Positions 1,185 through 63,018 of a stretch of DNA of 64,000 nt are shown in pieces. The notes beneath the pieces are model-generated. The model made no database searches and was not told the DNA's origin. It worked only from the letters and a program-made list of their open reading frames with translations. The first letter of the stretch is position 1. Each line of letters begins with the position of its first letter. Both the position numbers and the translations under genes were made by a program. Source of the stretch: a bacterium (GTDB lineage Archaea > Nanobdellota > Nanobdellia > Pacearchaeales > GW2011-AR1); the NCBI GenBank assembly GCA_036787775.1, contig DAIQOR010000001.1, positions 30,521-94,520 on the forward strand, read 5' to 3'.

Positions 1185-2726
1185 ATGAAAATAACGCTAA
1201 TTTCTACTTCCACTTTTCCCTCAGACCAAGGAATAAGAACAATCTCTGCAGTTTTGAAAAGAGAAAGTCATGAAGTAAAAATAATCTTCATGACTTTAGG
1301 CGAAGACTATTCCAGAAACTATTACGAAAAAGAATTATTACAACTTGAGAGATTATGCACGGGGAGCGATTTAATTGGGATAAATGCTTTTGCTTCGACA
1401 TCCGAAAGGGCAAAAAAAATAATAAAATTTCTAAAAAGCAAAATTCCAATTCCAATTATTTATGGAGGAGTACATCCAACACTTTTTCCAGAGAAATGCA
1501 TCGAGTTTGCAGATATGGTCTGCGTAGGAGAAGGGGAGGAAGCAATTATAGAATTAGTTAATGCTCTTGAAAAAGGAAAATCCATAAGTGAAATAAAAAA
1601 TATTTGGTCCAAAGAAAAAAGGGGGAAAATAATAACAAATACAGTTAGGAATTTATTGGATGAAATTGACAAATTACCTCTTCCAGATTATGATTTAGAA
1701 GATCATTATATCCTAAAAAATCAATCAATAAGGAAATTTAAAGAATCAGATTTAGTTGGACAAGTTTTATTTTTAACCGGAAGAGGTTGTCCTTATGGAT
1801 GCGATTATTGTAGCAATAGTTGTTTCAATGAACTTTACAAAGGAAAAAGAAAAAAAATACTCAGATTACATTCACCAAAATATATTATCGAAGGAATTTT
1901 ATATTTCAAAAAAAAGTTCAAGACATTAGGGTATTTTGATATTCGGGATGATACTTTTTCCATGAGACCCTTAGAAAACATAAAAGAATTTTGTAAACTT
2001 TACAAAGAAAGGGTAAACATGAGATTCAAATGTTTAGGAGACCCACACACTATCGACGACGAAAAAATAAAATTATTAGTAGATACAGGATGTACAGATA
2101 TAATCATTGGAATTCAAGGAAGTGAAAAAACAAACAAAGAAATTTATCATAGGAATCAAACAGATAGCGATGTTTTAAGGTCGGCAAAAATTTTACACAA
2201 ATATAAAGATAAGCTTGCAGTGATGTATGATATTATTGCATGTAACCCCTATGATAAGCCAGAATACATTTTAGATTTAATTGATTTAGTAAGAAAAATT
2301 CCCAAACCTTATTTTTTATCCGTCAATAATTTGGTTTTTTTCCCCGGTTCAGCTTTGTATAATCGTGCAAAAAGAGATGGATTGATAAAAACAGAAAAAG
2401 ATGCAGCATACCAATTAAATTATTGGGATAGAGCAAAGCACATAAAATTAAAAGGTAATAATGTTTATCTAAATTTAATTTTGAATTTAATGAGAGGAGC
2501 TGCTAAAGAAAATAGAATTGGTTTTTTACCTAATTTTTTGATGGATTGGGCATTGAAACCAGAAAGGGTTAAGTATCATCTTAAGCACCCAGCATTTTCA
2601 TATTTAGTTCTTTCAATTATTGAAATATATGATAATTTAAGAGAAAGAATATTAAAACCAATTTTTAGAGCTTTACCATTAAGTTTCAAAATATGGCATG
2701 ATAAAGTTAGATACCATTTCAAATAA
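1185..2726 (+). CDS. Cobalamin(B12)-binding domain radical SAM protein
   Basis: N-terminal B12-binding-like Rossmann segment followed by radical SAM CxxxCxxC (GCPYGCDYCSNS); 513 aa. Confidence 0.7.
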   Translation: MKITLISTSTFPSDQGIRTISAVLKRESHEVKIIFMTLGEDYSRNYYEKELLQLERLCTGSDLIGINAFASTSERAKKIIKFLKSKIPIPIIYGGVHPTLFPEKCIEFADMVCVGEGEEAIIELVNALEKGKSISEIKNIWSKEKRGKIITNTVRNLLDEIDKLPLPDYDLEDHYILKNQSIRKFKESDLVGQVLFLTGRGCPYGCDYCSNSCFNELYKGKRKKILRLHSPKYIIEGILYFKKKFKTLGYFDIRDDTFSMRPLENIKEFCKLYKERVNMRFKCLGDPHTIDDEKIKLLVDTGCTDIIIGIQGSEKTNKEIYHRNQTDSDVLRSAKILHKYKDKLAVMYDIIACNPYDKPEYILDLIDLVRKIPKPYFLSVNNLVFFPGSALYNRAKRDGLIKTEKDAAYQLNYWDRAKHIKLKGNNVYLNLILNLMRGAAKENRIGFLPNFLMDWALKPERVKYHLKHPAFSYLVLSIIEIYDNLRERILKPIFRALPLSFKIWHDKVRYHFK

Positions 2727-3417
2727 TTCTTTCAAAATATTCAGTCACATCCTCAACACCTGCCCAATGAAACCCTGCCTGCCTCAATTTACAAGCTAAA
2801 CAAAATCCACAATGTTTTTCCTTTCCAACATAACAACTAAAAGTTTTTTTAAAATCAACACCTAATTTTTTACCTATCAAAATAATATCTTCTTTATCTT
2901 TTTTTATCAGCGGAGCTTTTATTTCAAAATTCCCCGAACAACCAATCTTCGCAAGGCGATTTATTTCTCGAACAAATTCTTTTGTTGTGTCTGGATAACT
3001 TTCATCACCTTCGCATTTGAATCCCACAAAAATATCACAGTTTTCCTTATTTTTCACAAATCTCGATTCCGCAAGTGCAAGAGCATAAGTCAAAAAAATC
3101 GTGTTCCGACAAGGCACATAATATTTTTCCGATTCCTCTTTTGTGTCCTTCAAATCTTTTTTACTAAGTTTTTTTATTTCACCTTCTTTATTAATTAATG
3201 AACCCGAGATTTCTCCCAACCAATCCAATTTTATCTCTTCAAATTCAGCCCCAAGATTTTCAGCACAACTTTTTGAACATTTTCTCTCTGAATCCAAGGA
3301 TTTTTGTCCATAATTAAAAAAAAGCACCAAAAGCTCATAACCCGCGTTTTTCGCGAAATAAGCGGTTGTAACGCTATCAATTCCTCCCGAGCACAGAATT
3401 ATTGCCTTCTTCTTCAT
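2719..3417 (-). CDS. queC: 7-cyano-7-deazaguanine synthase QueC (PP-loop ATPase)
   Basis: N-terminal PP-loop ILCSGGIDSVTTAYF and C-terminal Zn-site C-x7-C-x2-C-x2-C (SCYVGKEKHCGFCLAC). Confidence 0.7.
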   Translation of the reverse strand: MKKKAIILCSGGIDSVTTAYFAKNAGYELLVLFFNYGQKSLDSERKCSKSCAENLGAEFEEIKLDWLGEISGSLINKEGEIKKLSKKDLKDTKEESEKYYVPCRNTIFLTYALALAESRFVKNKENCDIFVGFKCEGDESYPDTTKEFVREINRLAKIGCSGNFEIKAPLIKKDKEDIILIGKKLGVDFKKTFSCYVGKEKHCGFCLACKLRQAGFHWAGVEDVTEYFERII

Positions 3418-22383: not shown

Positions 22384-23205
22384 ATGAAATCATTTTTACA
22401 AAAAAGAAAACAATTTAATTTAATTGCCAGAGATATAAAATCAATTAAAATTCAAGGTGCAAGAAATGTCGCGAAGTCTGCGTTGAAAGCTTATCACTTA
22501 ATTCCGACGGAGAGGTCAAAAAAGAAACTTCTAAAACTTCGTCCGACAGAACCGATGCTTCAAAATGTTTTGGAAAAAGCAACAACCCAACCTTACAAAA
22601 AAGTTTTAGCTCATTTTGACGAAGCTCAAGAAAAAATAAACAAAAATGTTTTCCAATTAATAAATAATCACAACGTTCTTTTCACACACTGTCATTCCAC
22701 AAATGTTATCAACGCTTTAATTTATTCAAAAAAGAAAGGAAAAAAATTCGAAGTTTACAACACCGAAACAAGACCATTATTTCAAGGAAGAAGAACAGCA
22801 AAAGAATTGAAAAGAAATAAAATTAAAGTAACTATGTTTGTAGATTCTGCCCTAGGAATTGCTTTAAGCAAAGAACAGGGAACAAAAAAAGTAAATAAAA
22901 TTTTTCTCGGAGCTGACGCACTAACAAAAAAAGGAGTAATTAATAAGGTGGGTTCAGAAGTAATTGCACAAATCGCAAAAAATCAAAACATTCCATTTTA
23001 TATCGTCGCTGATTCTTGGAAATACACAAACAAAGATTTATCAATTGAACAAAGAGAATTAAATGAAGTTTGGGATAAAGCACTAGAGCACATCAAAATA
23101 AAAAATCCTGCATTCGAATTTGTCGATAAAAAATATATTACTGGAATTGTAACAGAATTAGGAATTATGAAATATGGGGAATTTGTTAAAAAAATAAAAA
23201 GTTAA
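22384..23205 (+). CDS. eIF-2B alpha/beta/delta family protein (candidate ribose-1,5-bisphosphate isomerase)
   Basis: IF-2B fold motifs FTHCHSTNV, IFLGADALTKKGVINKVGS, YIVADSWKY; ORF track starts at TTG 22357, first ATG 22384. Confidence 0.6.
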   Translation: MKSFLQKRKQFNLIARDIKSIKIQGARNVAKSALKAYHLIPTERSKKKLLKLRPTEPMLQNVLEKATTQPYKKVLAHFDEAQEKINKNVFQLINNHNVLFTHCHSTNVINALIYSKKKGKKFEVYNTETRPLFQGRRTAKELKRNKIKVTMFVDSALGIALSKEQGTKKVNKIFLGADALTKKGVINKVGSEVIAQIAKNQNIPFYIVADSWKYTNKDLSIEQRELNEVWDKALEHIKIKNPAFEFVDKKYITGIVTELGIMKYGEFVKKIKS

Positions 23206-23705
23206 CAACACCCACACTCTTCATCTTCGCAAGTACAATCTTCATCTTCACAGCATTTCTCTTCTTTTCCTTCACACTTACAATTTCCACCACAAGCATG
23301 ACCCCCGTTTTCCATTCCTTGAGCATCCATAACTGCTTTCGTCAATTCTTGATTAATATCTTCCATCGCGTTATCCAATTCAATTCTCGCTTTTCCCAAT
23401 CTCCTGAGTTGTTCTTGAATTAATGCCTTTGTTTCATCGATACTTTTCTTAACTAAATTTTTTTCTCCGACATCCACCAACAAATCCTCAGAAATTAATT
23501 TCGCTTTCGCAAAGATCCCTCGACCAATCGGCGCCATAATTTCCTTCCCTTTAGCACCTTTCAATTCATCAAGTCCTAAATTCAAAGAACTCAACTCAAC
23601 AGTCCCTTTCTCCACTGCCTCAAGCTGTTGCTGAATTTGCTGAATCTGTTGCTCAAACATCTGAAACTTTATCATAAGTTCTTGGTTCATTTCCATAATA
23701 TTCAC
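23202..23705 (-). CDS. pfdA: Prefoldin alpha subunit with Cys-rich acidic C-terminal tail
   Basis: Coiled coil - beta hairpin (KEIMAPIGRGIFAKAKLISEDLLVDVG) - coiled coil; tail HACGGNCKCEGKEEKCCEDEDCTCEDEECGCC. Confidence 0.65.
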   Translation of the reverse strand: MNIMEMNQELMIKFQMFEQQIQQIQQQLEAVEKGTVELSSLNLGLDELKGAKGKEIMAPIGRGIFAKAKLISEDLLVDVGEKNLVKKSIDETKALIQEQLRRLGKARIELDNAMEDINQELTKAVMDAQGMENGGHACGGNCKCEGKEEKCCEDEDCTCEDEECGCC

Positions 23706-23732: not shown

Positions 23733-24137
23733 TTAAGCAACATTCAAAACTTTTCTCAGAATAATACTCGAAGCAATCGCCCCGCCGAAATACCACCAGA
23801 ACCAACTTGCAAGCACTTCGGTATAAATTCCCCTTATCCAAGCGAACACGAGAATCAATGGAATAAAAGTATACAACATCGGTTTCATCGAATGTTTCAT
23901 CATCTCCATCGAGCAAGTCATCATTTCTTTCTGAATCTCGCCCTGCTTCTTCAAATCTCCCTTCGCATCTTTAATCTTAATCTGACACGCCTTCTGCACA
24001 GCCTTCAATTCCTTAAGTCTCTTCTGATCCGTAAACTTCTTCGTAACCAGCGTCATAAAAAGCGTAATCAAAAATGCAACTAAAACAACACTCACTTTCG
24101 CATTAACAATCATCCATTCTTTTATTATTTCCAACAT
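23733..24137 (-). CDS. DUF106 family membrane protein (archaeal YidC/Oxa1/EMC3-like insertase candidate)
   Basis: TM1 - basic coiled coil - TM2 - TM3 topology in 134 aa; immediately upstream of secY. Confidence 0.5.
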   Translation of the reverse strand: MLEIIKEWMIVNAKVSVVLVAFLITLFMTLVTKKFTDQKRLKELKAVQKACQIKIKDAKGDLKKQGEIQKEMMTCSMEMMKHSMKPMLYTFIPLILVFAWIRGIYTEVLASWFWWYFGGAIASSIILRKVLNVA

Positions 24138-24233
24138 AAAATAAAAAAGAAAAAATAGTTTTTAAGAGTTTAGTTTTATTCATCCCCCATTTTTCTTCTT
24201 AATTTTCCCAAATTTTAGATTAAAGAATCAAAA

Positions 24234-25688
24234 TTAACCACCCATGAATTTCTTCATAGCAGGATTCATATCTTCTGCGTGTTTCTGTGCAATGCTCTGA
24301 TAGAACTGGAACATAATCATAATTACCAACAGCATCGCTGTTCCTGCAACCAAAGCACCCATCATGTTTGTTATCGACGCCAAGAAACCAATTGCCGCAC
24401 CACCCATAACTGTCAAAGGCATAATGTATCTATCTAAAATACTTTCTAAAATTCTAATGTCTTGTCTGAAACCTGCAACTTGCAATCCCGAAGCCGCAAT
24501 TTTCTGAGCCTGCGCTTTTGAATCCATCCCGGAAGTTTTAACCCAGAACACCGAAAAAATAGCACAGAAAATAATAAAGAAAAGCATGTGAGTAATTCCT
24601 TGAATTAAATAAATCCATAAAAATCCTCCCCGGATTAATAATTCTAAAATATTAGTTGAACCTAACCAAAACGCCATTCCCGAAACTGCTTGCCCGTCGA
24701 CAAAGTGTCCAAAGAAAGTAAAGTAAGAAGCAATTTTCGCACTGCCAGCACAAACCGCGCCTTCAACAGCATTATCTAAACAAGGTGCCGCAACATTTTC
24801 AATAAGCCCACCGAACAATTGCATATTTGCCAAAAGTGCCGAAACTAAAATAACTGGAATAACTGAAGCATAAAAGAAAGACAACGGCCACTTAATTGAG
24901 TAACCTCTTATTCTTCCAAAAGATAAAGGAATTTCAACTTTCAAAGATTGTGCCCAAACAACAGCCAAGAAAATAACAATTGTAGCAAGAATTGCCGCCG
25001 CCGCCGAAACAAATTCAATAGGATATTTATTTATCACCGACTGAATTAAAACTAAAATTTTCCCCGAGCAAGCGGTGTTCTTAAAATCTAACAAACAATT
25101 TCTTCCCTGAGTATCAACAAACTGCAACGCGCTCGTAATAATTCTCCACGAAACTCCCGCACCAATAAATAAACTAACTCCTGAACCGAAACCCCATTTT
25201 TCAGAAAGTTCGTTCATATAAAAAATCGCCAGTCCTCCAAGAATCAACTGACCAATAACTATCCAAGTAAAACCTGGCAACGCTTGAAGACCCTGCATCA
25301 AAACATAAATCATCGCCTCGAACACAATAAAAAAGAAAGTTAATAATTTCTGAAGTCCCCCGAAAAACTTTTTACCCTCGGCAGTGGTGGTGTCAATATT
25401 AATAATTCCAGAACCCGACAGCAACTGCAAAATAATCGAAGCCATTACGATTGGACCAATACCTAAAGAAATTATTGAACCAAAATCTGTTCCAAGAATA
25501 ATCGCAAGATATTCAAACCGACTCAAAGCATTCGCCGACAAACCGAAAAGCGAAACATTCGCCAAAATAAAAAACGCTCCCAACACAATTAAAGTCCATT
25601 TCAACTTCGTGTTAAAGTCAAGTTTTTTCTCACTAGGACTCTTCACTTCCGGAATGTAATTAAATAAATCTCTCAAAGCCATTTTCAA
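24234..25688 (-). CDS. secY: Preprotein translocase subunit SecY
   Basis: 484 aa, 10 TM, archaeal SecY N-terminus MKMALRDLFNYIPEV...; follows L15 in ribosomal cluster. Confidence 0.9.
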   Translation of the reverse strand: MKMALRDLFNYIPEVKSPSEKKLDFNTKLKWTLIVLGAFFILANVSLFGLSANALSRFEYLAIILGTDFGSIISLGIGPIVMASIILQLLSGSGIINIDTTTAEGKKFFGGLQKLLTFFFIVFEAMIYVLMQGLQALPGFTWIVIGQLILGGLAIFYMNELSEKWGFGSGVSLFIGAGVSWRIITSALQFVDTQGRNCLLDFKNTACSGKILVLIQSVINKYPIEFVSAAAAILATIVIFLAVVWAQSLKVEIPLSFGRIRGYSIKWPLSFFYASVIPVILVSALLANMQLFGGLIENVAAPCLDNAVEGAVCAGSAKIASYFTFFGHFVDGQAVSGMAFWLGSTNILELLIRGGFLWIYLIQGITHMLFFIIFCAIFSVFWVKTSGMDSKAQAQKIAASGLQVAGFRQDIRILESILDRYIMPLTVMGGAAIGFLASITNMMGALVAGTAMLLVIMIMFQFYQSIAQKHAEDMNPAMKKFMGG

Positions 25689-25728: not shown

Positions 25729-26223
25729 TTAAATTCTCCATCCATAAGCAGAATATAAAATAGCTTGAGGTTCGTAAACAAGCCATTCCCTCAATTTTTT
25801 TCCAATCAAAGTTCTTCCTTCCTGATCTTCCGTGTGACCATCAATAACATGATACAATTCATGCTCTAAACTGCAAACACTAGAATTTTTATTGAATTTT
25901 ATCAAATGTGTTTTATTTCCAATTTTTTTGGCTCCATTCCCTCGCTTATTAAACTCTCCTTCTTCAAGGTTATACGTTTCCAAAAATTCTTTCCACTTGT
26001 CAGGCGTATAAAAATAAATTTCAATTTCTAAATCTTTTTCTGCTTTCAAATCCTCTCGGATTCTTTGAGTTTCCGCTATTAATTCAGTTTGACTCCTTAT
26101 TTTTGGAGAACTTTTTGCACAATCTGTAGCAATACTCTTGAGAGTTTTTACATAACATTTTGGACTAGCCAAAATAATTGCCGTAGCAATTCCCCCATAA
26201 ATACATTTTCTAAGTGATACCAT
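25729..26223 (-). CDS. Hypothetical HExxH zincin-like protein
   Basis: SLEHELYHVIDGH (HExxH) near C-terminus, hydrophobic N-terminus; inserted between secY and rpl15. Confidence 0.35.
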   Translation of the reverse strand: MVSLRKCIYGGIATAIILASPKCYVKTLKSIATDCAKSSPKIRSQTELIAETQRIREDLKAEKDLEIEIYFYTPDKWKEFLETYNLEEGEFNKRGNGAKKIGNKTHLIKFNKNSSVCSLEHELYHVIDGHTEDQEGRTLIGKKLREWLVYEPQAILYSAYGWRI

Positions 26224-26290
26224 GCCTTTACCGCAACTTTTTACTTATTTAAATCTTTCTATATGTAACTATTTTTTAGAGATAACAGAA

Positions 26291-27721
26291 TTATATTTCA
26301 ACTGCATTCCTATCCACTTTTTTCCTTACAACACCATTTTCATCTTTACAAACTTCGCAACCATGAGAAGTATATTTATGAAGTAATGGACAATTGCCTG
26401 GTCCAGAAACGTCCTTTATTGCAAAAGTTTCTTGATGATAACAACAAGAAAATCCTTTTTCACATTCATTAATTGAAAGATAATCATAAGCTTCTTCAAT
26501 AGGTTCTCCAAGAGCAATATAATCGCCCCTTAACAATTTTCTATAGTAGTATCTTACATTCGGTAAGAAAGTTGAATCTCCTGTAAGAACCAATTTATTT
26601 CCTTCTGGAGTATTAACTTCTATGCTCCCCCCAGTTTCTCCAGATTTTTTTTTCTGAGTAAAAAGAGAATTATACTTTGGTTTTGCTCCAAGCACCCCAA
26701 TCCCAAATATTTGCAGTCCTGCATTTGCGGGATCATTCGGATTTTCATAATAAGCATAAATATTAGAAGTCATTCCATCACTAAACGCTCCTCCATTCTC
26801 AATCCTTAATTCAGCTCTAATTTCTTGCCCATCCACATTTCGAGCATCCACATTAACATATTCAGTTACCCCTCCTTTCAAAGGTCTGAATGAAAAATAT
26901 TTCTGATTAGGAATTCTCAAACTATTTTGAAATTCAACTAAAGGGCATTCCAAATCTTCTACTTCGCATCCACTAACAACTGATAAATCTCCTAATGAAA
27001 CATATGTCCCTTCATGTTTTTTTCCATCAAAAAATAAATTAACTCTTTCATTAAAACTTGTAACATCTATTCCCTGTTGAATTTTTTCATATTTTCCTTC
27101 AAAATTTACAACTTCTCGAGGAGCAATATAAACTTGCCCAGATGAGTCAACTCGCACATTCCCATTAATTGGTTCCGCACATTTTTCACAAGTAATTAAC
27201 TGATTAAATAATTCCCCTCCTGCTTGAGGAATGTTTGCAAGTTCCAACGCAACTTCATTTATTGATTGTCCTTTTTCCACAATTACTTGAACTGAAGGTT
27301 TCTTATCTTTTTCATAAACTAATCTCGCACCTTTTGGAACAAAAACTTTTTCTCCCTCAATTACACAAATAGAAGTTTTAGAAGAGACATAATTTGCTTT
27401 AACCACATTAAAACTTTCATCTAATATAAAATTGTTCTCTTCAACACTTATTCCCTCAAAGTTATTTCCAGAAATATCTGAAATTCCATCCGTATTAGCA
27501 AATTCTCCAACTACTGATATCTGGTAATTTCCCCCTTGCTCTGCAATTTTTTCTCCTTCAAAAACATTAATCGTTTCTATATTATTTATCACTCCCGGTT
27601 CAATCCTGATTTTCTCAAGAGAGAATGTTTCGGCCATAACTAAATTGCAAGTCAAGGACAAAAAAAACATTCCAATAATTAGACAAATAATTTTTCTTTT
27701 CATTTTCCGACAAAAATCCAT
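26291..27721 (-). CDS. Secreted hypothetical protein with C-terminal Cys-rich module
   Basis: N-terminal signal/TM (IICLIIGMFFLSLTCNLVMA), 476 aa, C-terminal CEKGFSCCYHQ...GNCPLLHKYTSHGCEVC. Confidence 0.4.
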   Translation of the reverse strand: MDFCRKMKRKIICLIIGMFFLSLTCNLVMAETFSLEKIRIEPGVINNIETINVFEGEKIAEQGGNYQISVVGEFANTDGISDISGNNFEGISVEENNFILDESFNVVKANYVSSKTSICVIEGEKVFVPKGARLVYEKDKKPSVQVIVEKGQSINEVALELANIPQAGGELFNQLITCEKCAEPINGNVRVDSSGQVYIAPREVVNFEGKYEKIQQGIDVTSFNERVNLFFDGKKHEGTYVSLGDLSVVSGCEVEDLECPLVEFQNSLRIPNQKYFSFRPLKGGVTEYVNVDARNVDGQEIRAELRIENGGAFSDGMTSNIYAYYENPNDPANAGLQIFGIGVLGAKPKYNSLFTQKKKSGETGGSIEVNTPEGNKLVLTGDSTFLPNVRYYYRKLLRGDYIALGEPIEEAYDYLSINECEKGFSCCYHQETFAIKDVSGPGNCPLLHKYTSHGCEVCKDENGVVRKKVDRNAVEI

Positions 27722-28413
27722 TTAAATTCTGATTTGGAATCTTCTAAAACAAAAACAATTTCTTCATCATCCTCAAAATTTTCCATATTAAAATCATTTT
27801 CTTCTAATAATTCATTCGAACAAGTCAAGCAATGTCCATACTCATTTGTTGTATCAATCGAAACAATGTTTTCGATAACTTCATACATTTTTCCCATCTT
27901 AATATCAACTTCTGAAGAATATGCTTCTTTTAAATTTGAGGAGGATTCACTACCAATTTTTTTAACGTTTAAATCATAATTTAATTCAGTGGAAACTTTC
28001 AAGTTTTCTATTTCAACATTCACCGAGGGTTGTCGTGAGCTAATTTCTAAATTTTCAAAATTTTCAAAATCTCCGATACAAAGAGAAAAACTTTCCAAAA
28101 TATAATTCGAGATCTCTCCTCCCAAATCTATTTTTGAAGGCAAAAGATTCTGATCTCCAGAATAATAATATGGGAGGCCTTCAGAATTTAAATTTTGTGT
28201 GGAAGGATTTTTTTGCTCACCAAATTCATACATTCCAATTAAACTCGCTTCATCAAAGCAATCTTGAACAAATTCTCTAACACCCTCGACATCTGGTGTA
28301 TAAATTCTATCTTCATTAGATGATTCCCCTCGCAACAAAAAATATCCTCCAACAGCCCCAACTATCACAACAGCAATTATAATAAAAATTGTAACCTGTC
28401 CACTCTTTTTCAT
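27700..28413 (-). CDS. Membrane-anchored hypothetical protein (N-terminal TM, acidic ectodomain)
   Basis: MKKSGQVTIFIIIAVVIVGAVGGYFLL anchor; 22-nt overlap with downstream gene suggests co-transcription. Confidence 0.4.
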   Translation of the reverse strand: MKKSGQVTIFIIIAVVIVGAVGGYFLLRGESSNEDRIYTPDVEGVREFVQDCFDEASLIGMYEFGEQKNPSTQNLNSEGLPYYYSGDQNLLPSKIDLGGEISNYILESFSLCIGDFENFENLEISSRQPSVNVEIENLKVSTELNYDLNVKKIGSESSSNLKEAYSSEVDIKMGKMYEVIENIVSIDTTNEYGHCLTCSNELLEENDFNMENFEDDEEIVFVLEDSKSEFKWIFVGK

Positions 28414-28443: not shown

Positions 28444-28953
28444 TTATTTCTTCTTTCTAGCGTGTTTTGGATTTATCACGACGGGAGTTTCAATCACAAA
28501 TTTTTCTTTAACAATTATTTCTCCACCAACTTTCTTTATCTTTTCCATCGCAGATTCAGAAGCTTCAAAAGCAGTTATAAAGAATTTATTTTTAACTTCT
28601 CCAACTCCAAGAATCTTAAAAGAACTCAAATTAATTTCATATTTCTCTCCAACTTTTTTAGCAACGCCTTTCTTAACCAACTTCGCTAAATTCAATTCAA
28701 TAGTTCCAACATTTATTCTATCTCTTTTATCTCTTCTTGTTCCTTTACTTGTGATTCCTTGTTTTCCAAAATATCCATGTCCATATAATTTTGTAACTAA
28801 AGTTTTCTTCTGGTCTGCTCTCTTTCCTGTTCCAGCCATTCCAACTCCACCTTTATGTCCAGACTTTCGCTTGTTCTTTCTCGAACCACTTCCATGAGTT
28901 CCCATATTTTTTCCGTGGAATCTCTTAACTTTTTTTCTCTTCTTAATTTTCAT
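28444..28953 (-). CDS. rpl15: Ribosomal protein uL15
   Basis: Gly/Lys-rich N-term GHKGGVGMAGTGKR, position before secY. Confidence 0.85.
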   Translation of the reverse strand: MKIKKRKKVKRFHGKNMGTHGSGSRKNKRKSGHKGGVGMAGTGKRADQKKTLVTKLYGHGYFGKQGITSKGTRRDKRDRINVGTIELNLAKLVKKGVAKKVGEKYEINLSSFKILGVGEVKNKFFITAFEASESAMEKIKKVGGEIIVKEKFVIETPVVINPKHARKKK

Positions 28954-54699: not shown

Positions 54700-55014
54700 A
54701 TGGATATAAGTGAAATAGAAAGGAAAATAAAAGAGTTTAAAGCAAAAGGTCTTGAATGGAATGTGGGTTATTCAGAATGGAGAGGTGAATGAGGGAGAAT
54801 TATTTATTATATAGAAGAGCAAGTAAAATTACCTTCTGGAGAATGGATTAGTAAATATAAGATTAGAGAATATTTTGAAAAAAATAAATTAGAATTCGGA
54901 AATACAAAACAAATAGAGTATCTTTTAGCATTAGAATTTTTCGATTTAGTCGAATTTTTTCCTTCCAATTATCCTGCAGGATTAAGTGCGGAATATGTTG
55001 ATTTACTTAGTTAA
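54700..55014 (+). pseudogene. 105-codon reading frame interrupted by a single in-frame TGA at 54790-54792 (pseudogene or recoding candidate)
   Basis: ATG at 54700, 30 codons, TGA, then 74 further sense codons with no ATG and no stop until TAA at 55012; not in ORF track. Confidence 0.4.
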
Positions 55015-55987
55015 TCTTAATCTTCAATCCCTCTTTCCTCTTTCCCAAAACATAAGCTCGACTTCTTTCGTGCGAATCTAAAATTTTCAAACCAGTCTCT
55101 TTAGCCAACTTTTTAACAAACTCCAACATCTCTTTATCTGTGGGCATTTTATCATAACCCAATCTCTCCCGAGCAAACCCAACGGACATAAATCCTTTTA
55201 TTTCAACAAAAAGTGGTTTAGCTTTTCCAATCATCTCAGAATATTCTTTAACATGCTCATCATTCATATTCAAATCTCTAACAAGATTCATCCTAAATAC
55301 CGTTCGACACTTTAAACCAGACATAATTTTCAAACTCTCATTCAACTTCGCCCACGCATCCTTAAACTCGCTTCTATGAAATTCGTTATACAATTTCTCA
55401 TTCGGAGCATTAACAGAAATATACAACTGCGTCGGCAACTGATTCTTCTTCACCAACTCTTTCAACTTCTCAGGATAAAGCCCATTAGTAACCAAAAAAG
55501 AAGTCTTCCCTCTTTTTCTCAGTTCCTCAATTAATCCTCCAATATTTTCATAAAGCGTCGGCTCACCACTCAAACTAATCGCAAACTGCATCGGCTCCTG
55601 TGCCTCCAAATATTTCTTCTGGTTCGCCCGACTCATCTGCTTTTTCTTACTTCGCGAATCAATCTTAAACCCTTTCAACAATTTTCTCTGTGCAAGAATA
55701 CAACCATCAATAATCTCCGACGGAGAATCCAACTTCCCTTTTAACTCACTTCCCAAAGTTAATTCAATCGCCCGCCAACAATGCACACATTTATTCGGAC
55801 ACCACATCACCGACGGCGTCATCTGACAGCAAAGATGCGATTTAATTCCATAAAATTTTTCTTTGTAACACACACCCTCATCCTTCAGCGACCTCTTCGT
55901 CCAACGACAAACCTGCACCGCCGAATGTTTTCCAACAATTTCATAATGTTGTTTTTTCAAAACTTTCTTAACTTTTTCAGGAATCAT
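55007..55987 (-). CDS. taw1: tRNA 4-demethylwyosine synthase Taw1 (TYW1-like radical SAM)
   Basis: CPNKCVHCWR radical-SAM cluster motif characteristic of TYW1/Taw1; second Cys cluster (CRWTK..CYKE..CCQ) upstream; 326 aa. Confidence 0.65.
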   Translation of the reverse strand: MIPEKVKKVLKKQHYEIVGKHSAVQVCRWTKRSLKDEGVCYKEKFYGIKSHLCCQMTPSVMWCPNKCVHCWRAIELTLGSELKGKLDSPSEIIDGCILAQRKLLKGFKIDSRSKKKQMSRANQKKYLEAQEPMQFAISLSGEPTLYENIGGLIEELRKRGKTSFLVTNGLYPEKLKELVKKNQLPTQLYISVNAPNEKLYNEFHRSEFKDAWAKLNESLKIMSGLKCRTVFRMNLVRDLNMNDEHVKEYSEMIGKAKPLFVEIKGFMSVGFARERLGYDKMPTDKEMLEFVKKLAKETGLKILDSHERSRAYVLGKRKEGLKIKIN

Positions 55988-58102: not shown

Positions 58103-58774
58103 ATGGCACTAAATAAAAAAGATTTCATTGAAATAGAATTCACAGCGAGGGTAAGAGACACTCAAGAAGTTTTCGATTCAAATATAAAGAAAGATTTAGA
58201 GAACTCAAATTTAGAAACAGACACAAAACCTTTCATTTTTGCATTAGGGGAAAACATGTTTCTAAAAGGTGTAGAAGATTTTTTACTCGGAAAAGAAATT
58301 GGAAAATATAAAATTGACTTGGAACCAGAACAAGCTTTCGGAAAAAGGGATTCAAGATTAGTTCAAATTGTTCCAATGAAAGTTTTCAGACAACAAAATG
58401 TTCGACCAATTCAAGGTGCAATGTTCAACTTCGACGGCAGAATCGCAAAAATACTCTCGGTTTCAGGTGGAAGAGTAATAGTGGACTTCAATAACCCCGT
58501 ATCAGGAAAAGCTGTAACATATGAAGTAAATGTTTTAAGAAAAATAGAAGACCTCAACGAAAAAATAAAATCTTTCATTCAATTCATTTTCCGAAGAGAC
58601 CTAAAATTCGAATTAAAAGAAAAAGAACTAATTCTTGAAGTAGAAAAAGAAATGAGACAATTTGTAGAACTATTCGCGGAAAAATTCAAAGACATATTTG
58701 GAGTTACTATGACTGTAAAAGAAGTTGGAAAAGAAATCAATGAAATTTCCAAAGAAGTTAATTTACCACAATAA
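58103..58774 (+). CDS. FKBP-type peptidyl-prolyl cis-trans isomerase (long archaeal type)
   Basis: FKBP core (DFIEIEFTARV...VFDSN...FIFALGENMFLKGVEDFLLGKEIG, VIVDFNNPVSGKAVTYEVNV) plus C-terminal helical domain. Confidence 0.65.
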   Translation: MALNKKDFIEIEFTARVRDTQEVFDSNIKKDLENSNLETDTKPFIFALGENMFLKGVEDFLLGKEIGKYKIDLEPEQAFGKRDSRLVQIVPMKVFRQQNVRPIQGAMFNFDGRIAKILSVSGGRVIVDFNNPVSGKAVTYEVNVLRKIEDLNEKIKSFIQFIFRRDLKFELKEKELILEVEKEMRQFVELFAEKFKDIFGVTMTVKEVGKEINEISKEVNLPQ

Positions 58775-62240: not shown

Positions 62241-62313
62241 GGGGATATGGGGTAGCCTGGTAGCCTTTCAGGTTTGGGACCTGACGACCCCGGTTCAAAT
62301 CCGGGTATCCCCA
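62241..62313 (+). tRNA. tRNA-Pro (anticodon UGG)
   Basis: Hand fold: acceptor GGGGAUA/UAUCCCC, D-loop AGCCUGGUA, anticodon stem UCAGG/CCUGA loop UUUGGGA, T-arm CCGGUUCAAAUCCGG; no encoded CCA. Confidence 0.75.
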
Positions 62314-62329
62314 CTTTACATTCGAGAAA

Positions 62330-62688: not shown

Positions 62689-63018
62689 ATGGATTCTAAC
62701 AATAATACTTTTCAAGAAATGCAAATGGTAGAACAAAGTTTGCAAAACATTCTTTACCAGAAGCAAGCTTTCCAAATGGAACTTTCTGAAACTGAATCAG
62801 CGTTGACAGAAATTGAAAAATCTGGCGACGAGGTTTTCAAAATTGTTGGACAATTAATGATTAAATCTGACAAAATAAAAATAAAAAAAGAATTAAAAGA
62901 CAAACAAAAAATTATTCAAACAAGATTAAACGCGATGGATTCTCAAGAAAAAACTCTAACTAAAGAGTTGGAAACTTTAAGAAACGAGATATTTAAATCT
63001 CAAACGAAGAAGAAATAA
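62689..63018 (+). CDS. pfdB: Prefoldin beta subunit
   Basis: 109 aa coiled coil - hairpin - coiled coil; conserved location after rpl37ae/rpoP. Confidence 0.7.
   Translation: MDSNNNTFQEMQMVEQSLQNILYQKQAFQMELSETESALTEIEKSGDEVFKIVGQLMIKSDKIKIKKELKDKQKIIQTRLNAMDSQEKTLTKELETLRNEIFKSQTKKK

Follow-up and report, generated by a model that had tools for sequence, protein, structure and literature searches.

The window, a stretch of 64,000 nucleotides, carries on its minus strand the gene for a prefoldin alpha subunit that ends in an acidic, cysteine-rich tail. This gene, the parts of its product and the further genes that bear on it are the following, with the evidence for each in parentheses.

23202-23696, minus strand: pfdA coding sequence, prefoldin alpha subunit of 164 amino acids, TAA stop codon at 23202-23204 (open reading frame list, Pfam, homologues)
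23316-23696, minus strand: canonical prefoldin-alpha core, residues 1-127, without any Cys (AF2 model, Foldseek, family profile)
23205-23315, minus strand: Cys-rich acidic C-terminal tail MENGGHACGGNCKCEGKEEKCCEDEDCTCEDEECGCC, residues 128-164, 37 amino acids (sequence counts, homologous tails, AF2)
23214-23231 and 23235-23252, no strand assigned: two copies of an 18-nt segment in the tail-coding DNA (repeat search: 89% identity, spacing 21)
23733-25682, minus strand: upstream co-oriented genes for SecY (24234-25682) and an EMC3/TMCO1-like (DUF106, YidC-like) insertase (23733-24137) (PF00344 on identical contigs; PF01956)
62689-63018, plus strand: prefoldin beta subunit, the presumed partner, 109 amino acids, no Cys and no tail (PF01920, 3.2e-14, 53.2 bits against a cut-off of 27.6)

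In a mechanical listing, the minus-strand open reading frame spans positions 23202 to 23705 and encodes 167 residues, but the ATG at 23696 is the likely start, yielding a protein of 164 amino acids, as the JGI and ENA gene calls agree and the N-terminal consensus of the homologues, MxxxQQELMxKFQMFEQQ, fits. Residues 18-129 of the 167-residue frame match PF02996 (5.1e-14, 52.7 bits against a cut-off of 23.2). The AF2 model of the core, with pLDDT values of 80-92, consists of a helix (residues 2-45), two beta hairpins (strands 52-58, 61-66, 71-75 and 81-85) and a second helix (86-127). Beta-class prefoldin subunits have a single hairpin and alpha-class subunits have two, placed between two long coiled-coil helices, and with four strands between two helices the modelled protein shows the alpha-class architecture. 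The top Foldseek matches are the alpha chains 2zdi_C (E 1.7e-6) and 1fxk_C (TM 0.84 on target), ahead of beta chains, and the family profile matches 1fxk_C at 3.8e-19. The protein is a prefoldin alpha subunit (PF02996; PfdA/GimC alpha), and the conserved fold that a first-pass annotation had placed ahead of the tail is borne out by the Pfam match, the model and the two structural matches. Note that the canonical archaeal subunits, GimC alpha of M. thermautotrophicus (1FXK chain C) and the P. horikoshii protein (2ZDI chain C), share fold and class with the window protein, which like canonical archaeal PfdA has a beta partner in its genome and lies in a context of protein-biogenesis genes. The two solved chains, however, stop a few residues past the C-terminal helix and have no Cys-rich segment, while the protein described here does. 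The core superposes on these solved chains, and the tail is a genuine extension past the prefoldin-alpha fold, the point that a proposed alignment with orthologues was to settle.

The insertase gene ends 36 nt before pfdA, and SecY, insertase and pfdA probably form one protein-biogenesis transcription unit. The gene order L15-SecY-EMC3-PfdA-<IF2B-SpoIIM-STT3 is kept at 16 of 18 loci with a tailed pfdA and at 57 of 62 tail-less loci; the related loci were covered with flanks of 4-6 kb on either side. No metal-related gene adjoins pfdA, the neighbours being SecY, the YidC-like insertase, an IF-2B-family protein, SpoIIM and STT3. Elsewhere in the window there are two radical-SAM genes, at 1185-2726 and 55007-55987, and the latter encodes a wyosine (Tyw1-like) enzyme. 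None of 80 loci belongs to a genome with two pfdA matches, and we rejected a specialised prefoldin alpha paralogue on the grounds that tailed and tail-less genes share one syntenic slot with a single match per genome. The gene encodes the sole prefoldin alpha, a syntenic housekeeping protein, of a Pacearchaeota-type archaeon (DPANN, Nanoarchaeota). A precursor of a RiPP or ranthipeptide (SCIFF-like), which a C-terminus rich in Cys, Asp and Glu could bring to mind, was likewise rejected, given a syntenic housekeeping pfdA, no adjacent radical-SAM maturase and the distance of the window's radical-SAM genes.

The tail holds 10 Cys (27% of its 37 residues), arranged with three CxC and two CC motifs, and no aromatic residues. 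All 10 Cys fall within the last 32 residues, which also contain 9 Glu, 3 Asp, 3 Lys, 1 His and 6 Gly, so that 12 acidic residues stand against 3 Lys and the net charge is approximately -9. The tail sequence quoted in the first-pass annotation was exact and corresponds to residues 128-164, but its count of 13 Cys in about 32 residues was too high, the recount giving 10; its coordinates, 23202-23300, did cover the stop codon and the last 32 residues, but fell short of the full quoted tail at 23205-23315. Given the 1.05% Cys of the other 73 open reading frames of the window, the probability of finding at least 10 Cys in 30 residues is about 4e-13, and none of these other frames exceeds 5 Cys per 30 residues. 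In the AF2 model residues 130-164 have pLDDT values below 50 and are predicted to be disordered. The two copies of the 18-nt segment, 21 nt (7 codons) apart, encode C-E-D-E-D-C-T and C-E-D-E-E-C-G, and these copies record a local tandem duplication by which the tail gained a Cys pair. Tandem Repeats Finder returned no repeat in the tail DNA, as a two-copy array is too short.

Low-complexity 3' ends are a classic site of error, and the stop codon of pfdA overlaps the convergent gene by 4 nt; these are the only grounds for suspecting that a frameshift, a read-through or an assembly error has created a spurious Cys-rich extension. The identical 164-residue protein, however, is found with the same neighbours on 24 independently assembled contigs (JGI, ENA and Logan), among them contigs from the groundwater samples JGI 3300025073 and ENA ERZ909573, and the only differences among variants of the population cluster are the called start and one H-to-Y change, by which the single His of the window tail becomes Tyr in one variant. 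Moreover, dozens of proteins of only 50-70% identity carry homologous tails with conserved Cys columns, and tails can be read straight from the DNA of 18 species-representative genomes. The sequencing or frameshift error that had been named as the observation to dispose of the tail is thus excluded by the 24 contigs and by the Cys columns of the relatives. The tail is real, neither a frameshift nor an assembly error, and we regard the chance of an artefact as negligible.

Among the 120 best homologues, 74 have tails with at least 4 Cys (mean 34 residues, 20% Cys, 31% Glu plus Asp, 8% His), a count inflated by the preference of a tailed query for tailed matches; the less biased figure, obtained with core-peptide patterns, is 18 of 80 species-representative genomes. 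The tail is by both counts common in relatives, where the first-pass annotation had suggested looking for it. Its statement that canonical prefoldins have no such tail is correct for the solved archaeal alpha subunits, but does not hold in this archaeal clade. The homologous tails share the pattern (HxH)-CxC-x-CxC-x-CxC, and in spite of a mean column identity of 24% their alignment contains four invariant Cys columns and two more with at least 90% Cys. The cores, of about 125 residues, contain 4 Cys in total across all 120 homologues, and the contrast between invariant tail columns and nearly Cys-free cores indicates, at the level of sequence, that selection acts on the Cys residues of the tail. 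Of the 74 tails, 42 open with an HxH or HxHxH run, and the number of Cys per tail ranges between 4 and 10. The dominant spacing is CxC (193 of 417 Cys-Cys spacings in the 74 tails), while CxxC, typical of Zn-ribbon and Fe-S sites, is rare (22 of 417), and a site of either kind was rejected for this reason. Prenylation at a C-terminal CC or CxC motif, as in Rab GTPases, was rejected as well, as most homologous tails end in Lys, Glu or His.

The 80 species-representative genomes, all labelled Pace-, Woese- or Nanoarchaeota, comprise 18 with a tailed protein, some with His-only tails and 58 with none, and all of these states share one syntenic slot. His-only or mixed short tails are found in some lineages, for example at loci L042, L075, L028 and L033, and tail-less orthologues finish in a short charged end rich in Lys and Glu. 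On a crude tree of these species-level genomes we infer at least about 20 gains or losses of the tail, and from this number, together with the 58 genomes without it, it follows that the tail is dispensable over evolutionary time. It is a clade-wide but patchy feature, confined to the alpha subunit and evolutionarily labile.

The charged ends of the tail-less orthologues bring up a role independent of metal, in which the tail serves as an acidic, disordered 'entropic bristle' or as a pseudo-substrate, for solubility, for the selection of clients such as basic ribosomal or nucleic-acid-binding proteins, or for docking to the thermosome, and its Cys residues are incidental. The net charge and the predicted disorder of the tail are in line with this, as is its place at the tip where clients and chaperonin bind according to structural and truncation studies of archaeal prefoldin. 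It is nevertheless the Cys columns that are invariant while the acidic residues between them are free to vary, and a content of 20% Cys is costly and specific where proteins average about 1%. Charge also fails to explain why His and Cys interchange between lineages, and we consider an explanation of this type quite improbable.

The same position at the client-binding tip, now seen as a dense array of reactive thiols, could also suit a thiol buffer or a redox switch. Oxidants would be sensed by the Cys cluster, which may have Zn bound at rest, and metal release or disulfide formation would alter holdase activity in the manner of Hsp33; alternatively, the tail would act as a sacrificial antioxidant in an oxygen-exposed anaerobe. 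The sample names do suggest that the organisms are groundwater and sediment anaerobes, and Hsp33, a holdase governed by a C-terminal Zn-binding Cys cluster that contains a CxC, provides a precedent. In Hsp33, however, this cluster has exactly four Cys in the fixed arrangement CxC-x(27-32)-CxxC within a folded domain, whereas the PfdA tails are predicted to be disordered, hold 4-10 Cys in varying number where 2-4 would suffice for a switch, show the CxC...CxxC spacing nowhere and CxxC rarely, and give no match to the Hsp33 family of Pfam (PF01430). The His-only tails of some lineages are incapable of forming disulfides, and odd Cys counts, nearly as common as even ones (31 versus 43 tails), argue against obligate disulfide pairing. 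A redox function thus described seems to us unlikely.

The tail was found on the alpha subunit only. None of 120 homologues of the beta subunit has a Cys- or His-rich tail, and 117 of them have no Cys at all. In a six-frame translation of 683 kb, comprising the window and related loci, the acidic CxC motif occurred in long open reading frames exclusively at PfdA C-termini, and no free-standing Cys-rich acidic frame was seen. The FKBP/IF (SlyD-type) protein of the window (58103-58774) contains no Cys and no tail of this kind. A profile of 38 aligned tails retrieved no match at E <= 0.001 from 1.84 billion representatives, but this profile is short and compositionally biased and missed the prefoldins themselves, and against PDB sequences the profile and a single tail gave nothing or insignificant toxin matches (E >= 0.2). 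In the literature searched we found no description of a Cys-rich or metal-binding prefoldin tail.

These searches also bear on the idea that shared metal-thiolate clusters, or disulfides, let the tails cross-link hexamers with each other or with a partner (thermosome, ribosome or membrane insertase) and so build a higher-order scaffold. Going by the AF2 model, two flexible, multivalent tails per hexamer could link complexes, and archaeal prefoldin paralogues can form filaments, one of which, the filamentous gamma-prefoldin 6vy1, is among the structural matches. The filament-forming paralogue, however, needs no Cys tail, the 683 kb of related DNA revealed no partner whose Cys-rich segment could complement the tail, and the variable length and Cys number of the tails suit a sponge more than a defined interface. 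We give very little credence to such bridging.

We prefer to read the tail as a metal-binding, metallothionein-like module that is particular to this lineage and attached to a housekeeping co-chaperone, and by analogy with known systems we put the probability of this reading at about 0.6. The tail would form a thiolate module, complemented by carboxylate or imidazole groups, that binds several metal ions of soft or borderline character, the candidates being Zn(II), Ni(II), Cu(I), Fe(II), Co(II) and Cd(II). The dominance of CxC, the rarity of CxxC and the frequent HxH runs fit a set of metal ligands. The occurrence of His-only and mixed tails indicates that His and Cys substitute for each other, an interchange that, judging from the sequences, would be expected of metal ligands and of little else. 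As the tail begins at the end of helix 86-127, opposite the N-terminus of helix 2-45 in the model, it would hang from the distal tip of each alpha 'tentacle' of antiparallel coiled coil, and an alpha2-beta4 hexamer would then bear two tails beside the known client- and chaperonin-binding surface. The alpha2-beta4 assembly itself, the holdase activity and the hand-over to a group II chaperonin are assumed from family membership. An abundant co-chaperone may in this manner also serve to buffer or store metal in the cytosol, and possibly the tail donates metal to clients held at the tentacle tips. We infer the binding of metal, and likewise the identity of the metal and the number of ions, the geometry of the hexamer in this organism and any role in delivery. 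Counting against the metal-binding reading are the acidic spacers, the lack of an adjoining metal gene and of a match to a metallothionein family, the dispensability of the tail and its single His, replaced by Tyr in a variant.

A bolder version holds that prefoldin is a true metallochaperone. In these DPANN archaea, ultra-small and poor in genes, the tail would then be the chief buffer of cytosolic metal and would load Zn or another metal directly onto nascent metalloproteins that the tentacle tips hold, ahead of their transfer to the thermosome or in its course, with Zn-ribbon ribosomal proteins and RNA polymerase subunits as good candidate clients. If true, Archaea would have their first characterised metallothionein-like module, and prefoldin would for the first time be seen naturally coupled to metal insertion, but we advance this as a tentative and rather improbable proposal.

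Prefoldin is regarded as a plain ATP-independent holdase whose sole functional surface is formed by the hydrophobic tips of its coiled coils, six in number. The presence at such tips, on the alpha subunit alone, of a conserved Cys/His-rich module in a large clade of Pace-, Woese- and Nanoarchaeota suggests, by analogy, that here folding may be joined to metal handling. To our knowledge, DPANN archaea have few recognisable metal-trafficking genes and no known metallothionein, and metal binding by the tail, if confirmed, would give a first handle on metal homeostasis in these organisms. It would also mean that nature supplies a compact metal-binding tag fused to a scaffold that is well behaved and assembles by itself, a point of interest for work on prefoldin-based nanomaterials. 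Should the tail not bind metal, it is still a clean case of a low-complexity module rapidly gained, lost and duplicated under selection for Cys.

In composition the tail resembles metallothioneins. These typically have about 15-30% Cys in CxC, CC or CxxC motifs, and the window tail, with 27%, lies in this range. Like the vertebrate beta-domain and the fungal Cu-metallothioneins, it contains approximately 20-30% Cys, mostly in CxC pairs 3-5 residues apart, has no aromatic residues and no predicted fold in the absence of metal. The PfdA tail is, however, a segment fused to a core of 127 residues, while metallothioneins are small free-standing proteins, and its Cys residues are separated by Glu and Asp, atypical for metallothioneins, where Lys, Ser or Gly are found in these positions. 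A Pfam scan of 10 tails at E <= 10 yielded as its best hit Metallothio_5 (E = 0.27; 11.8 bits, where the cut-off is 25) and nothing for the window tail, placing it outside the Pfam metallothionein families. The resemblance to metallothioneins or metal-chaperone tails that the first-pass annotation had proposed therefore stands for composition, CxC motifs and disorder, but does not extend to membership of a metallothionein family, and on sequence grounds the tail is best described as an analogue of metallothioneins and not as a detectable homologue. The coupling of the chaperone to metal delivery or redox sensing, which the same annotation had suggested, is an argument by analogy. Modular metallothioneins grow by internal duplication of Cys-containing units (PMC9781358), and the 18-nt repeat of the PfdA tail is likewise an internal duplication of a Cys unit.

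Parallels in terms of the proposed function are found among folding helpers. Prefoldin is a co-chaperone that feeds the group II chaperonin, and the composition of the SlyD tail resembles the HxHxH run and the Cys pairs of many relatives of the window PfdA. General chaperones with His/Cys-rich, metal-binding C-terminal extensions include HspA and SlyD (PMC3856676, PMC3292732) as well as GroEL1 (PMC10170517, bioRxiv 10.1101/766162), and the precedent of the HspA, SlyD and mycobacterial GroEL1 tails supports the metal-binding reading of the PfdA tail. This class is defined by function and not by homology, and the window tail shares with it that it is a lineage-specific C-terminal extension, rich in potential ligands and predicted to be disordered (10 Cys; HxH in 42 of 74 relatives; pLDDT <50). 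The tail of SlyD takes up several Ni(II) or Zn(II) ions, a store of metal on which the maturation of metalloenzymes draws (PMC3292732, PMC3856676). SlyD of E. coli or H. pylori is, like PfdA, a general folding helper with a conserved fold ahead of a disordered tail in which His, Cys and acidic residues abound, and its tail too is present in some lineages and absent in others. The folds differ, an FKBP plus IF domain in SlyD and a coiled coil in prefoldin, and SlyD tails are dominated by His, whereas PfdA tails are dominated by Cys and Glu. The extension of H. pylori HspA is a Ni-binding segment that stores or sequesters this metal and that the bacterium can live without (PMC3856676). HspA, a GroES, is like PfdA a co-chaperone of a chaperonin system with a lineage-specific C-terminal extension, in its case rich in His and Cys, although the two proteins are unrelated and the HspA extension is limited to one genus with an exceptional demand for Ni, while the PfdA tail is patchily distributed over a large archaeal clade. 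With SlyD, HspA and GroEL1, bacteria have independently joined folding and metal handling, and if the PfdA tail does bind metal it would be a fourth, archaeal, example of this convergent 'chaperone plus metal sponge' design.

The prefoldin alpha gene pfdA and the Cys-rich end of its product, PfdA, lie at the following positions:

23202-23705, minus strand: pfdA open reading frame (ORF listing)
23205-23315, minus strand: Cys-rich tail MENGGHACGGNCKCEGKEEKCCEDEDCTCEDEECGCC, residues 128-164, the last 37 residues of PfdA

The start is most likely the ATG at 23696, which is called on identical public contigs and fits the N-terminal consensus of the homologues, giving a product of 164 aa. As evidenced by the Pfam search, the protein belongs to the prefoldin alpha family PF02996 (52.7 bits, cut-off 23.2), and the beta-class model PF01920 stayed under its own cut-off. 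An AlphaFold2 model based on 98 homologues predicts a helix (2-45), four strands in two hairpins (52-85) and a second helix (86-127), with a pLDDT of 80-92 over helices and strands and below 50 for residues 130-164. The top PDB matches in Foldseek are alpha chains, 2zdi_C of P. horikoshii prefoldin (E 1.7e-6) and 1fxk_C of M. thermautotrophicus GimC (TM 0.84, normalised to the target), bearing out the prefoldin-alpha fold that the first-pass annotation had placed ahead of the tail. As both solved subunits stop a few residues past the C-terminal helix, the tail is an extension beyond the fold, and with antiparallel helices it is predicted to emerge from the coiled coil at its distal tip.

The tail matches exactly the sequence quoted in that annotation, but contains 10 Cys rather than the 13 stated there, along with 9 Glu, 3 Asp, 3 Lys, 6 Gly, a single His and no aromatics. 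Because Cys accounts for 1.05% of residues in the window's 73 other ORFs, the chance of finding 10 in 30 residues is about 4e-13, and no other ORF of the window exceeds 5 Cys per 30 residues. Within the tail DNA, two 18-nt segments (23214-23231 and 23235-23252, 21 nt apart) that encode CEDEDCT and CEDEECG are 89% identical, which argues that local duplications of Cys-bearing units lengthen the tail. A frameshift or sequencing error as its source, the possibility named at the outset, is refuted: independent assemblies from JGI, ENA and Logan, groundwater metagenomes among them, contain 24 contigs on which exactly this 164-aa protein is called. Variation within the 90% cluster is confined to the called start codon and one tail change, His to Tyr at residue 133 of the related database protein P0122 (GGHACGG to GGYACGG); this variant, found on one 1.2-kb ENA contig, loses the sole tail His and keeps 10/10 Cys.

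All 24 contigs share the gene order S5-L30-L15-(three unknown genes)-SecY-EMC3/YidC-like-PfdA, followed by a convergent IF-2B-family gene, SpoIIM and STT3. The neighbouring genes of the window are:

22384-23205, plus strand: IF-2B-family gene, convergent to pfdA
24234-25682: SecY
25729-28413, minus strand: three ORFs of 164, 476 (14 Cys) and 237 aa between L15 and SecY
28444-28953: ribosomal protein L15
18550-21306: STT3/AglB oligosaccharyltransferase, 918 aa, within a glycosylation block
1185-2726: B12-binding radical-SAM protein, within the same block
2719-3417: QueC

The pfdA and IF-2B-family genes end on the same palindromic TTAA (23202-23205), and this 4-nt overlap of stop codons, common to all identical contigs (L001-L006), leaves no intergenic space for a terminator. 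In most related genomes little or nothing separates L15 from SecY. The three ORFs between them here begin with hydrophobic N-termini and match no Pfam family, and tblastn found no homologue of the 164-aa ORF in 80 related loci; the region appears to be an insertion specific to this lineage, coding for secreted or surface proteins, at the spc-operon/SecY junction. The 237-aa ORF begins with a stretch (MKKSGQVTIFIII...) similar to the class III (pilin-like) signal peptides of archaea. Note that a large cell-surface glycosylation gene block (26-21306, both strands) adjoins the pfdA neighbourhood, with Glycos_transf_4 and polysaccharide-synthesis family genes identified on identical contigs.

The tail recurs in relatives. 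Tails with at least 4 Cys are present in 74 of the top 120 homologues (50-73% identical to PfdA), a sample enriched for tailed matches because the query itself is tailed; they average 34 aa with 20% Cys, 20% Glu, 11% Asp, 11% Lys, 10% Gly and 8% His. A further eight carry a short tail with 1-3 Cys, in most cases alongside several His, and the remaining 38 stop about 6 residues past the helix. All 120 cores combined contain 4 Cys. A less biased scan, which took a single genome for each species and was seeded on core peptides, yielded 80 loci, almost all with the label Pacearchaeota, Woesearchaeota or Nanoarchaeota; 18 have tails of at least 4 Cys and 58 have no Cys. The claim that canonical prefoldins have no such tail thus holds for the solved alpha chains, but not for these related archaea. 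A few loci have His-only tails (L042, ...HTHLHSHEHKHED; L075, ...HEHHHGHSHEH) and L028 and L033 short mixed ones; the pfdA C-termini of L015, L042 and L075 carry His-only tails, e.g. NSHTHLHSHEHKHED and SSHEHHHGHSHEHSDEE, instead of the Cys-rich one.

EMC3 lies upstream of pfdA at 16/18 tailed and 57/62 tail-less loci, so that both forms are positional orthologues; this common syntenic slot rules out the tailed gene as a paralogue of the tail-less one. The tail state is clustered on a neighbour-joining tree of 193 core sequences, needing 20 parsimony changes where shuffled states need about 65; these 20 changes still imply many tail gains or losses. The closest relative, P0002, is also tailed, with the same ...CGCC ending, and the pair is placed among tail-less sequences. 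In a six-frame translation of 683 kb (window and related loci), the acidic CxC-rich pattern occurred in long ORFs only at PfdA C-termini.

Across 38 aligned tails the recurring core is (HxHxH)-[ED]-CxC-[GKE]-x(1-4)-[ED]-CxC-x(3-8)-CxC; Cys is invariant in four columns and at least 90% conserved in another two, at a mean column identity of 24%. The Cys positions are under selection and the intervening residues are not. Intervals between consecutive Cys are CxC in 193/417 cases and CxxC in only 22/417, and tails hold 4-10 Cys, the count being odd in 31 and even in 43. The window tail has the highest Cys content in the sample and is atypical in its single His and two CC doublets. His and Cys stand in for each other across lineages, the strongest sequence-level hint of metal ligands.

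These selected Cys positions, the His/Cys swap and the preference for CxC over CxxC, together with the lack of aromatics, predicted disorder, frequent odd Cys counts and the place of prefoldin in the cytosol of anaerobes, where disulfides are unlikely, argue for a metal-binding tail. A multi-ion type as in metallothionein, SlyD or HspA fits better than a disulfide knot, Zn ribbon, Fe-S site or acidic spacer. The same Cys might serve a redox switch of the Hsp33 type or a thiol buffer; the tail lacks the Hsp33 motif, and we regard this option as doubtful. A role of charge or disorder with incidental Cys would suit the acidic, flexible stretch, but is improbable against the invariant Cys columns, and metal-bridged assembly is slightly less probable still. 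We favour, at a probability of about 0.6 and by analogy, a metal buffer or reservoir borne by an abundant co-chaperone, which may donate metal to clients. The distal coiled-coil ends of archaeal prefoldin are its client- and chaperonin-binding surface, as reportedly established by the 1FXK structure and truncation studies, and each alpha2-beta4 hexamer would thus have two metal-loaded tails beside its bound clients. His runs ahead of Cys point to Ni, Zn or Co, and CxC clusters to Zn, Cd or Cu(I).

Further chaperone-related features of the window are:

58103-58774, plus strand: FKBP26-type PPIase (FKBP_C and IF domains, SlyD-like architecture)
62241-62314, plus strand: tRNA-Pro(TGG), upstream of the prefoldin beta gene
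62689-63018, plus strand: prefoldin beta gene (Pfam), product without Cys

Lying 39 kb from pfdA, the beta gene is not co-transcribed with it; a 100%-identical subunit in NCBI is labelled 'Candidatus Pacearchaeota archaeon'. In a set of 120 beta homologues from the same clade, 117 lack Cys altogether and not one carries a tail rich in Cys or His. The PPIase likewise has 0 Cys and no His/Cys tail, and the metal-ligand-rich tail is here on prefoldin alpha, not on the SlyD-type chaperone.

The proposed mechanism draws on bacterial chaperones with metal-binding C-terminal tails: HspA (GroES) binds Ni with its extension, which stores and sequesters the metal; SlyD has a tail that binds Ni and Zn and supplies hydrogenase maturation (PMC3856676, PMC3292732); and GroEL1 binds Cu through its His-rich tail (PMC10170517, bioRxiv 10.1101/766162). 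By this analogy the PfdA tail would act like metallothionein or SlyD, yet it belongs detectably to neither family. The metallothionein likeness first proposed stands in composition, CxC pattern, lack of aromatics and predicted disorder; it fails in that no Pfam metallothionein matches (best E = 0.27), that metallothioneins are free-standing whereas the tail is a fused segment, and that its spacers are acidic. The tail matched no PDB sequence, and the full-text literature searched held no description of a Cys-rich or metal-binding prefoldin tail. A metal-binding tail on a chaperone is a principle already known; undescribed in that literature is such a tail on a prefoldin, in Archaea, acidic and CxC-rich, and spread across a large clade.
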